Positions 33,711 through 37,560 of a DNA stretch of 64,000 nucleotides are shown here, in pieces. The translations under genes were made by a program, and so were the position numbers. This DNA is from a virus, in the IMG/VR virus record IMGVR_UViG_3300032235_000437, positions 1-64,000 of that record. The stretch is one strand, 5' to 3'. The stretch's first letter is position 1; every line of letters begins with the position of its first letter. The notes under the pieces are model-generated. The model saw only the letters and a program-made list of their open reading frames with translations, had not been told where the DNA came from and searched no databases.

Positions 33711-34122
33711 TTGGTCTGAAATATGGCTATTAAGCAAAAGAGATCTATCCTCAATAATTTGTTTGACCTATGCTCAATCAAAAGAATATAATGAGATATC
33801 AGCTAGAACAATGATGGCTAGATTAAAACTAGACCATATACCGCCAGAGTTATTTCATCATAAGATATTCACACAATATAGACATACATTAGTATGTAAT
33901 TATAAAACTAAAGATCCTCAGAATTACTTTAATAATTCGTCATTTCTTTATACGCATACAACAGCTAAGCATAAAGCAGTTTATATCAAAGCTTTAGGCT
34001 TACGAAAGTTTACTTCTGATAAGAACTATATTCCGTTAAGATATTTTCCTAATGTGACCTATAATCCTTTTTTAGAGATAAACGATGATAAGATATACTT
34101 TCCACTAGAGTCCTCGATCTGA
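33691..34122 (+). CDS. Hypothetical protein
   Basis: ORF in the operon. Confidence 0.6.
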   Translation: MATTFFNWSEIWLLSKRDLSSIICLTYAQSKEYNEISARTMMARLKLDHIPPELFHHKIFTQYRHTLVCNYKTKDPQNYFNNSSFLYTHTTAKHKAVYIKALGLRKFTSDKNYIPLRYFPNVTYNPFLEINDDKIYFPLESSI

Positions 34123-34167
34123 GGAAATACACCACTAAGAACAAAGTTCATTTAAGGAGAAAACAAC

Positions 34168-35646: not shown

Positions 35647-36345
35647 TTGTATAGATTCGCAGAAGAACTAGACCATAAGAATTTTAAAGACAAAAATCGA
35701 GTAGACTCTATTGATACCTACTGGGATGATGATTATGACCTAGCTGACCCAGGTGGCTGGGAACATAGACATAATCACGAGGCTAATATTATAGCTGAGG
35801 TTATAGCGCAGTTAGGTATTAAAAAAGTACTAGAACTAGGCTCAGGCCCAGGAAACTTAGCTACTAAAATTATTGATAAGACTGGGGTAGATTATACACT
35901 AGTTGATGGTGACAGCGCATTGCGTGCTCATGCCAAGAGAAACAATAAAGGTAAGTTGTTAGTAATCGATCTATTTGATTCTTTTGACACAACCAATCTT
36001 GATAGTGATTATGATCTTGTAGTAGCTAATGATTTCCTAGAACATATCAGAAATCCTAGCTTGATACTAGAAAAAGTAAGAAATGATCTGACTACAGATA
36101 CTTCTTGGTTCTTTCTATCGTCACCTAACTGGAGAATGAAACATCAGTTTTACTATCCTGGACTATTTGATTATGACAATCTTGTAAAATTCATGATACA
36201 AGAAGGCTATAAGCTACATTTTGTATTTGATTCCTGGGCAAACCACGTACCAGTACGAGTTCCAAGATTAAATAGTGAATCTTCTTTACCAGAAGGCCAT
36301 CTATTTGACTGGAACCACTATCTGCTCTTTAAAAAAGAAGTCTAA
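35647..36345 (+). CDS. Class I SAM-dependent methyltransferase
   Basis: VLELGSGPG, YDLVVANDFLEHI and SSPN motifs. Confidence 0.85.
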   Translation: MYRFAEELDHKNFKDKNRVDSIDTYWDDDYDLADPGGWEHRHNHEANIIAEVIAQLGIKKVLELGSGPGNLATKIIDKTGVDYTLVDGDSALRAHAKRNNKGKLLVIDLFDSFDTTNLDSDYDLVVANDFLEHIRNPSLILEKVRNDLTTDTSWFFLSSPNWRMKHQFYYPGLFDYDNLVKFMIQEGYKLHFVFDSWANHVPVRVPRLNSESSLPEGHLFDWNHYLLFKKEV

Positions 36346-36347
36346 GT

Positions 36348-36378
36348 AAAAAATAAGGCGGGGAGCAATCCCCGCCTT
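36348..36378 (-). terminator. Strong terminator, with the longer T tract on the minus strand
   Basis: AAGGCGGGGA-GCAA-TCCCCGCCTT; minus-strand tail TTATTTTTT. Confidence 0.85.
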
Positions 36379-36557
36379 TGAAACTCCGTTTCGGTGGTAC
36401 AAAATAATAGGCACAAGTATCCCACCAAACGATGTGTAACTCCGTTACACTATAAACGTGCTAATAACGCTACGCAAGCTATACGCATCCTGCGTAGCGT
36501 TGTTCAATAGCTGTGAAATATTGTGCGAGCTGTATTCGATCACGTATTACAACTTGT
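36348..36557 (-). ncRNA. Candidate structured antisense small RNA or origin element with GGA-triloop hairpins
   Basis: Noncoding; bounded by a leftward promoter-like sequence (36564-36593) and a terminator; three perfect hairpins with GGA loops on the minus strand. Confidence 0.45.
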
Positions 36558-36597
36558 GAATATATAATAGCATACTTTTAGAAAAGAGTCCAAGTCT

Positions 36598-37560
36598 ATG
36601 ATTAGAATTTTAAGTTCAGCTGACTGGCATGTTAATTTACACCGAAAAAAGATACCAGCTCATTGGCAGATGAGACGTTTTCAGATGCTTTTTGAGCGAC
36701 TGCTAGAGTTGGAAGATCGGTGTGATGTACATGTTATTGCAGGCGACCTATTCGATAAAGAACCAGATCCAGATGAGATCTGCTTAGTTCTTTCATATTT
36801 AAACTCTGTGCAAAAGCCAACACTAGTTATTCCAGGAAACCATGAAGCTACTTCAAAAGGCCGTACATTCTGGGAACACTTTAAGTTGGAGAATACAATT
36901 AAAAATCCACTAGTACACATCTTTACAGAAAATTCTCGATTTGAAGTGTTAGGACAAGGATTTTGTTTATTTCCATATGGCTCTGTACAGACTAATAATC
37001 TTCCGCACTATGTAGAAGATGATATACTTGTAACTCATATTCGTGGTGAAGTGCCTCCGCATATTACTGCTGAGTATGATTTTGAAAAGCTGCGTCCTTG
37101 GAAACTTGTGTTGTTAGGTGATCTACACTTTAGACATAAGTACAAAGACTATCCAGTTTACTACCCTGGTTCGCCGCTTAACACAACTTTTGATCGCGAT
37201 GATAAGCGTGAATATGGAGTTGATATTATTACGATGCGCAGCATTGACGACTATGCTGTTAACTTTGTTGATTTGAAGCTACCAAAGCTAATTCGTCGCA
37301 CAGTATCAGTCAATCAGCAGATGGTTCAAGACATCTACCATCACGTTATCTATGAAGTAACCGGATCAATTGATGAACTAGCACTAGTTAAAAAGACTGA
37401 TATGCTAGATAAAAAGATGGTAGAAAAGCCTACAACAGATGCTACTCTTGATTTAAAAGACAAGAGTTTGTATGAAGAACTTGAAATATATCTACAGTAT
37501 ATTAAGGTTTCTGACGCAGAATCAGTGTTAACCGCGTTTAAACAGTTAGGAATACAATGA
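36598..37560 (+). CDS. SbcD/Mre11-like nuclease (T5 D12)
   Basis: ADWH, AGDLFD, PGNHE, GDLH and YPGSP motifs. Confidence 0.92.
   Translation: MIRILSSADWHVNLHRKKIPAHWQMRRFQMLFERLLELEDRCDVHVIAGDLFDKEPDPDEICLVLSYLNSVQKPTLVIPGNHEATSKGRTFWEHFKLENTIKNPLVHIFTENSRFEVLGQGFCLFPYGSVQTNNLPHYVEDDILVTHIRGEVPPHITAEYDFEKLRPWKLVLLGDLHFRHKYKDYPVYYPGSPLNTTFDRDDKREYGVDIITMRSIDDYAVNFVDLKLPKLIRRTVSVNQQMVQDIYHHVIYEVTGSIDELALVKKTDMLDKKMVEKPTTDATLDLKDKSLYEELEIYLQYIKVSDAESVLTAFKQLGIQ

Follow-up and report, generated by a model that had tools for sequence, protein, structure and literature searches.

A conserved, backward-oriented non-coding unit with covarying triloop hairpins in the replication module of uncultured T5-like phages

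The virus record IMGVR_UViG_3300032235_000437 of IMG/VR comprises 80,446 bp and is judged 71% complete, and its first 64,000 nucleotides constitute the window analyzed here. The genes around the element that we describe form a T5-type replication and recombination module. The replication part of the module encodes an NAD ligase, a D5-like regulator, a DnaB-like helicase, a primase, a family A polymerase, a D10-like helicase and a gp32-like SSB, and the remaining part a 273-aa protein without an assigned function, a SAM methyltransferase, D12/D13 (Mre11/Rad50-like) and a class II ribonucleotide reductase (RNR). The largest ORF of the phage record is that of the tail fibre. The plus-strand operon is tightly packed apart from a gap of 252 bp (36346-36597), which opens after the stop of the methyltransferase gene at 36345 and ends at the start of D12 at 36598, in agreement with a preliminary description of this DNA that had noted a gap of ~250 bp. 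Near-identical DNA was found in freshwater, riverine, wastewater and drinking-water metagenomes. All of the sequencing runs listed for a 9-kb stretch carrying the element (22/22) are DNA runs, and mapping of four of these runs on the stretch yielded strain variants only.

The gap carries a promoter and a terminator that face against the operon (Table 1). On the minus strand, the hexamer TTGGAC (36593-36588) is followed by an 18-nt spacer and by TATTAT (36569-36564), with TG ahead of the -10 hexamer, and this backward promoter abuts the ribosome-binding site of D12. The match alone is not significant, with 44 such sites in 16 kb against 49 expected, and it carries weight only because it is kept in relatives. 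The TG and a TAWTAT-type hexamer are near-invariant across homologues (L011 has TAATTT), and the -10 hexamer stands at a fixed distance from the -35-like hexamer while the sequence of the spacer drifts freely. TTGGAC is retained even when the downstream plus-strand gene is a different one (homologues L034 and L021). At the other end of the unit, the terminator stem (36355-36378) is followed on the minus side by a T tract, and the T tract on the plus side measures 3 nt. The terminators of relatives are built on three unrelated stems; as delimited, each stem is followed within 10 nt of the minus strand by 6-8 T and preceded within 10 nt by 1-5 A. The terminator of L011 is a minus-only one, lacking a plus-side T tract, and that of L003 fits the plus strand better. 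Proper plus-side T tracts are found at the plus-strand terminators elsewhere in the phage and at the terminator that T5 has at the equivalent D11/D12 junction. On the plus strand, the relatives showed no conserved promoter. Both the promoter with its TG extension and the strong minus-strand terminator had been named in the preliminary description, and both were recovered, the former as a feature kept in relatives and the latter at the top of the 16-kb scan.

Between these signals lie three perfect hairpins, H1 to H3, whose triloops read TCC on the plus strand and GGA on the minus strand. A count over the whole 80,446-bp record gave 149 perfect triloop hairpins with a stem of at least 5 bp, of which three have a TCC loop; all three are located within 117 bp, inside the element. 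The hairpins seen earlier are therefore the sole TCC-loop triloops of the record. Both strands fold much more stably than shuffled sequences, with z scores of -5.7 and, for the plus strand, -5.4. Upstream of H3 on the minus strand is a conserved block of ~34 nt in which two GCACA-like repeats stand exactly 10 nt apart. The word TACGCA is duplicated, resulting in an alternative stem of 11 bp (36466-76/36491-501) that the minimum free energy (MFE) fold lengthens to 13 bp. The element in the window has no tandem repeats.

Table 1. Features of the backward unit, listed from its promoter to its terminator; positions are those of the window.
Feature	Position	Strand	Basis, or behaviour in relatives
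-35-like hexamer TTGGAC	36588..36593	minus	Kept in 14/17 homologues, varied in L023, L011 and L010
Extended -10 (TGn + TATTAT)	36564..36572	minus	Promoter scan with TG extension; nearly invariant in relatives
Predicted transcription start	36555..36558	minus	Promoter geometry only, ~7 nt past the -10 hexamer
5' stem-loop, 7 bp with a U-G pair	36528..36554	minus	MFE fold
Conserved, apparently unpaired block (CGCACA ... CACAGCU ... AACGCUAC)	36494..36527	minus	No covarying partner
H3, 6-bp stem, GGA loop	36482..36496	minus	4/6 pairs changed on both sides in relatives
Alternative stem of 11-13 bp competing with H3	36466..36501	minus	MFE structure in the window
H2, 7-bp stem, GGA loop	36434..36450	minus	4/7 pairs changed on both sides; loop GGA, GAA, GUA, AGA or AUA
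H4, GGUGGG with CCUAUU, G-U-rich	36406..36426	minus	Pairing counts in relatives, RNA fold
H1, 5-6 bp stem, GGA loop, just before the terminator	36380..36392	minus	3 pairs changed on both sides
Intrinsic terminator, 10-bp GC-rich stem and T tract	36346..36378	minus	Top-ranked terminator-like site in a 16-kb scan

Homologues were searched for with the D12 protein and a conserved DNA pattern over IMG/VR and metagenome contigs, and the element was found in 17 distinct versions, all of them in related uncultured phages. The metagenome pattern scan contributed three new members together with three GC-rich chance matches, and a second, relaxed pattern run over IMG/VR brought no new member. A genome scan gave a sole match, in a Sphingomonadaceae MAG, which was rejected as chance (9.7 bits), and a distant-mode blastn search with the surrounding 2 kb matched no GenBank phage. 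A covariance model of the element detects a single copy in the 80,446-bp record, at 155 bits. No family of Rfam 15 reached its gathering threshold at the element, where the best local matches scored 20 bits against thresholds of 35-75. The unit is a real, conserved and previously undescribed non-coding unit. One homologue (L035, JACCDQ010113532.1) lies on a metagenome contig of 175 kb, longer than expected for this type of phage; the contig may stem from a larger relative, or represent a concatemer or an integrated copy.

The order SSB, 273-aa gene, element, D12, D13 and RNR is constant among the relatives, and the insertions around the element vary: upstream either a methyltransferase or a multi-HTH protein of ~560 aa, and downstream either an ORF of 214-238 aa or a 121-aa protein with a T7 gp5.9-like domain. 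Unrelated genes stand between the element and D12 in L010, L021 and L034. Since the accessory genes differ on both flanks, the unit travels as a module of its own and not as the leader of any one gene. The 121-aa ORF (L010 2643-3008), placed between element and D12, matches the domain of the T7 RecBCD inhibitor gp5.9 (PF25708, E = 4.8e-11). The ~560-aa proteins, composed of many HTH repeats, are encoded just upstream of the element in L034 (1374-3062), L021 (5350-7041) and L023 (261-1934), and in L023 the end of the gene overlaps hairpin H1. A sister clade, with D12 59-62% identical, carries the replication module in identical order. There the 273-aa gene abuts D12 without a gap, and the covariance model finds no element in contigs of 38-49 kb that span the whole replication module.

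Identity of the relatives to the window is 60-84% over the unit versus 45-71% at third codon positions of D12, and the unpaired ~34-nt block holds most of the invariant alignment columns. The 5' stem-loop is kept in the closest sub-lineages, with G-U pairs or single mismatches, and others have a different 5' hairpin. The number of triloop hairpins per element ranges from 3 to about 7. In L010, H1 and its flanks form a 32-nt unit present 3.1 times (2315-2413, 97% matches), which replaces H1 plus the terminator; in the same homologue the conserved block contains an additional AAC-AGA-GUU hairpin, and a further copy of the motif directly follows the -10 hexamer. In L005 the stem of H1 is swapped as a whole. 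An all-against-all column search of the alignment for long-range helices returned local hairpins only. Two further helices were rejected: the 14-bp helix of the window MFE fold (36413-27/36513-26) is not kept in relatives, and a distal helix ACGCUA/UAGCGY before H2, seen in most relatives with one double change, is degenerate in the window and was left out of the model. Micro-ORFs in the conserved block, judged by eye, are not kept in L005.

The minus-strand loops of the relatives read GGA, GAA, GUA, AGA or AUA, and the triloops are nearly always closed by C-G and flanked by AA/UU; H3 of one sub-lineage breaks this rule, with GUU or AUU. GGA is not required for the element. L010, L011 and L023 have no GGA loop, several other relatives have one only, and in a near-identical strain the change 36386 C>A turns the loop of H1 to GUA. 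The module that is kept is an AAC-(purine-N-A)-GUU hairpin.

We then compared the stems across the relatives. At H1-H3, double changes, one on each side of the stem, were counted at 11 of the 19 pairs; shuffles gave 4.4 +/- 1.3, with 0/500 reaching 11, and controls with slid registers gave at most 5. The differences among hairpins of one phage are mirrored in both arms, indicating that pairing within a strand is selected, rather than the binding of a dimeric protein to duplex DNA. The stems of H1-H3 are almost strictly Watson-Crick, and therefore do not separate RNA from single-stranded DNA; their G-U cells number 6 on the minus strand versus 2 on the plus strand. H4, with an RNA fold energy of -4 to -15 kcal/mol, is paired in 90% of cells on the minus strand versus 49% on the plus strand. 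All changes in H4 are one-sided with pairing kept, and in slid registers 47-59% of cells are paired, with one register at 83%, as compared to 90% in register. The preliminary description had proposed covariation, with G-U compensation pointing to RNA and strict Watson-Crick pairing to DNA, as the means to tell the two apart, and the outcome is divided: the stems covary and H4 is rich in G-U pairs, but H1-H3 are nearly all Watson-Crick, as would fit DNA.

Strain variants bear on individual stems. The variant 36482 T>C in H3 leaves the minus strand paired, as U-G, but creates a mismatch on the plus strand. The alternative stem is broken on the minus strand by 36470 C>T and in L003, and the plus strand fits 36470 C>T better. 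The bistable stem proposed earlier is hence real in the window, where it is the MFE structure, but it is limited to two sub-lineages and is broken on the minus strand by natural variants.

Taken together, these results suggest that the element is, on balance, probably a stand-alone minus-strand gene for a small structured RNA. The antisense non-coding unit of the preliminary description is upheld by the conserved promoter, the three unrelated minus-oriented terminators and the covarying hairpins. Pairing that favours the minus strand also speaks for an RNA, namely in H4, in the G-U pairs of the 5' stem-loop, in the U-G variant of H3 and in the small surplus of minus-strand G-U cells at H1-H3. 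A host sigma-70-type polymerase would transcribe the unit backwards from the extended -10 promoter, and the transcript, ~205 nt in length, would stop at the intrinsic terminator of the unit, immediately beyond the end of the upstream gene. It would carry, in this order, the 5' stem-loop, the ~34-nt unpaired block, H3, H2, H4 and H1. Acting in trans, it would offer several binding sites, as a multivalent platform or decoy, to a host or phage protein that recognizes these triloop hairpins, and, as a side effect, it might pair or interfere with read-through transcripts of the early operon. We infer the production of the RNA, its exact ends and any partner from the sequence. A multivalent protein-binding role is the one that we favour from the anatomy of the unit. 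More specifically, it is conceivable, though doubtful, that the RNA is a decoy whose array of AAC-(purine-N-A)-GUU hairpins titrates a hairpin-specific protein, such as a defence nuclease of the host or a translational repressor. By analogy, the variable number of hairpins, including the 32-nt unit present 3.1 times in L010, is what titrating RNAs show. The unit most likely represents a new small-RNA family of a narrow phage lineage.

Some observations run against an RNA gene. The C-GNA-G loop is the mark of DNA mini-hairpins of very high stability, whose RNA counterparts are far less stable (PMC13037366). The near-strict Watson-Crick pairing of H1-H3 counts on the same side. The motif copy after the -10 hexamer in L010 has its 5' arm upstream of the predicted start, so that this hairpin could not form in the predicted RNA. 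The support from H4 is lessened by its one-sided variation, by the ease with which G-rich and pyrimidine-rich arms pair and by the slid register that reaches 83%, and both the terminator of L003 and 36470 C>T fit the plus strand better. Searches for partners of the RNA gave the following. None of 202 translation start regions stood out by its duplex energy with the RNA (best z about -3), stretches complementary over at least 13 nt were absent from the rest of the record, and the element has no complementarity to the phage tmRNA. The gene content of the phages with the element and of the sister clade differs too much to name a partner protein, and a literature search for phage RNA sponges gave nothing specific.

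Among known RNAs, lambda OOP, of 77 nt, acts by overlapping the end of cII. Like OOP and P22 sar, the unit would specify a short RNA that has a promoter and an intrinsic terminator to itself, directed against the early operon beside the replication genes and free of an ORF. Unlike OOP, it would be ~205 nt long and lies in most relatives in an intergenic gap, and it has conserved hairpins and an unpaired block that would be needless for a purely cis-antisense RNA. A type III antitoxin-like repeat RNA was considered and rejected, since the window has no tandem repeat and the 3.1-fold 32-nt repeat of L010 has no downstream gene on that strand.

The main alternative to the RNA gene, one that we regard as unlikely, is that the element works as DNA. 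The backward promoter would open the duplex, and the displaced non-template strand, identical in sequence to the RNA, would fold into C-GNA-G mini-hairpins that stabilize an R-loop or act as signals for loading or priming, making the element a transcription-activated origin or a single-strand initiation site. Mini-hairpins of the d(C-GNA-G) type occur at N4 early promoters, G4 ori(c) and RSF1010 ssiA, and those of N4 use GGA and GAA loops (PMC13037366). The minus-strand loops of the unit obey the same rule, with the C-G closing pair and stems of 5-7 bp. The N4, G4 and RSF1010 hairpins function in single-stranded DNA, where a virion RNA polymerase or a primase reads them; in contrast to them, the hairpins of the unit are flanked by a sigma-70 promoter and a terminator, cluster at one locus and are accompanied by a G-U-rich helix. 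A search for PF00940 (T7/N4-type RNA polymerase) gave no match in the 71%-complete record, with the control search for this family also empty. The strict pairing of H1-H3, the overlap of the L010 motif copy with the predicted transcription start, the exact 10-bp distance between the GCACA-like repeats of the conserved block, which is iteron-like, and the location among replication genes would all suit a DNA element. However, the unit always ends in a strong terminator, at which a primer RNA would be released, H4 as DNA would need three G-T pairs, and an AT-rich unwinding tract is not conserved. Cumulative GC skew climbs steadily from ~12 to 44 kb without a turn at 36.4 kb, which is weak evidence as skew follows gene orientation. 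Furthermore, the sister clade has the same replication proteins in the same order and is without the element, both at this site and anywhere in its 38-49 kb contigs, and this absence suits an accessory RNA better than an essential origin. Of the origin proposed as an alternative in the preliminary description, the C-GNA-G loops thus stand, whereas the skew inflection expected with it is absent and the sister clade does without the element. The origin reading is less likely than a minus-strand RNA gene.

A promoter-terminator cassette without a functional product, serving as a transcriptional fence or damper between the SSB and D12/D13-RNR modules and as a recombination hot spot, is improbable in our view. 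The differing accessory genes on the flanks of relatives (methyltransferase, ~560-aa multi-HTH protein, ORFs of 214-238 aa, gp5.9-like protein) are what such a cassette would lead one to expect, and T5 has a terminator at the equivalent D11/D12 junction. The PeSLs of T4-type phages (PMC2839356, PMC4122927) are comparable, being compact modules of promoter and stem-loop at places where accessory genes come and go, and composite terminator/promoter motifs of this kind are tied to gene shuffling (PMC4122927). Unlike PeSLs, which are multi-copy, much shorter, dispersed repeats that point with the genes, the unit is single-copy, backward, 200 nt long and internally structured. A fence would have no need of 200 nt of conserved sequence, four covarying hairpins and a loop rule.

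It is more improbable still that the plus strand is the functional one, with the operon mRNA carrying a structured leader or processing element ahead of D12/D13. In favour of this, the two strands fold about equally well (z = -5.4 for the plus strand), two single changes give G-U pairs on the plus strand only, and, with a plus-side T tract of just 3 nt, transcription is likely to read through from the upstream gene. But H4 cannot pair on this strand (49%), the promoter and all the terminators face the other way, a conserved promoter for this strand was not seen, and unrelated genes part the element from D12 in L010, L021 and L034.

A CsrA/RsmA-type sponge titrating a GGA-binding regulator, suggested by the three GGA loops of the window and by one H3 context that reads CAGGAUG, is hardly credible: it is unsupported because GGA is not conserved, Csr/Rsm RNA families matched neither at the gathering score nor at E up to 10, the 71%-complete phage record holds no CsrA gene (the search controls matched), and triloops closed by C-G are presumably too tight for the usual A(N)GGA presentation. 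With CsrB/RsmZ the unit would share several short hairpins on one terminator-ended RNA, in a copy number that varies between relatives, but it differs in its AAC-(purine-N-A)-GUU hairpins with a 3-nt loop. The broader notion of a multivalent hairpin display survives the rejection of the CsrA sponge.

Several other features of the record were observed. The tmRNA gene of the phage, at 14.4 kb, is the sole match above threshold for Rfam 15 over the window; it is a complete, alpha-type permuted (two-piece) gene (14428-14822) scoring 105.7 bits with RF01849 and 112.5 bits with RF04321, and ARAGORN gives a tag peptide that ends in ALAA. The leader of the gp32-like SSB gene (window 34100-34167) is conserved in 10 relatives. 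Two hairpins lie in it: UCCUC/GAGGA, whose loop varies, and GAAC/GUUC, which has a variable loop of 3-4 nt and precedes the Shine-Dalgarno sequence by 8-9 nt; these hairpins could be a translational operator. The word AGAGTCC, common to the SSB leader and the element, was dismissed as it is not enriched (2 occurrences vs 3.1 expected). Hairpins of the form AAC-N3-GTT with a stem of at least 5 bp number 10 in the whole record, versus 1.85 +/- 1.5 in first-order Markov simulations. Those outside the element are at 517, 11217, 42069, 45192, 48789, 57073 and 59805 of the window and at 74476 of the record, mostly inside coding regions; five of these eight are GAAC-N3-GTTC, and CGAAC-TTC-GTTCG is identical at 11217 and 45192. 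Over the record as a whole, the plus strand has 13 GACTC and 33 GAGTC, versus ~52 expected for each, and GANTC totals 181 versus 277 expected. GANTC may be scarce because the phage avoids a GANTC-specific enzyme, with a strand bias.

Few phage-encoded small RNAs are understood. The unit described here is a compact small-RNA candidate with clear boundaries, a repeated hairpin module, natural loop swaps and a tripled hairpin, and it belongs to a family that is small so far and known from metagenomes only. We know of no mapped replication origin for T5-like phages, and a literature search for a T5 origin near D12 gave nothing specific. A finding that the unit makes an RNA displaying hairpins to a new partner would therefore be informative, and so would a finding that it is a transcription-activated start site built of DNA hairpins.
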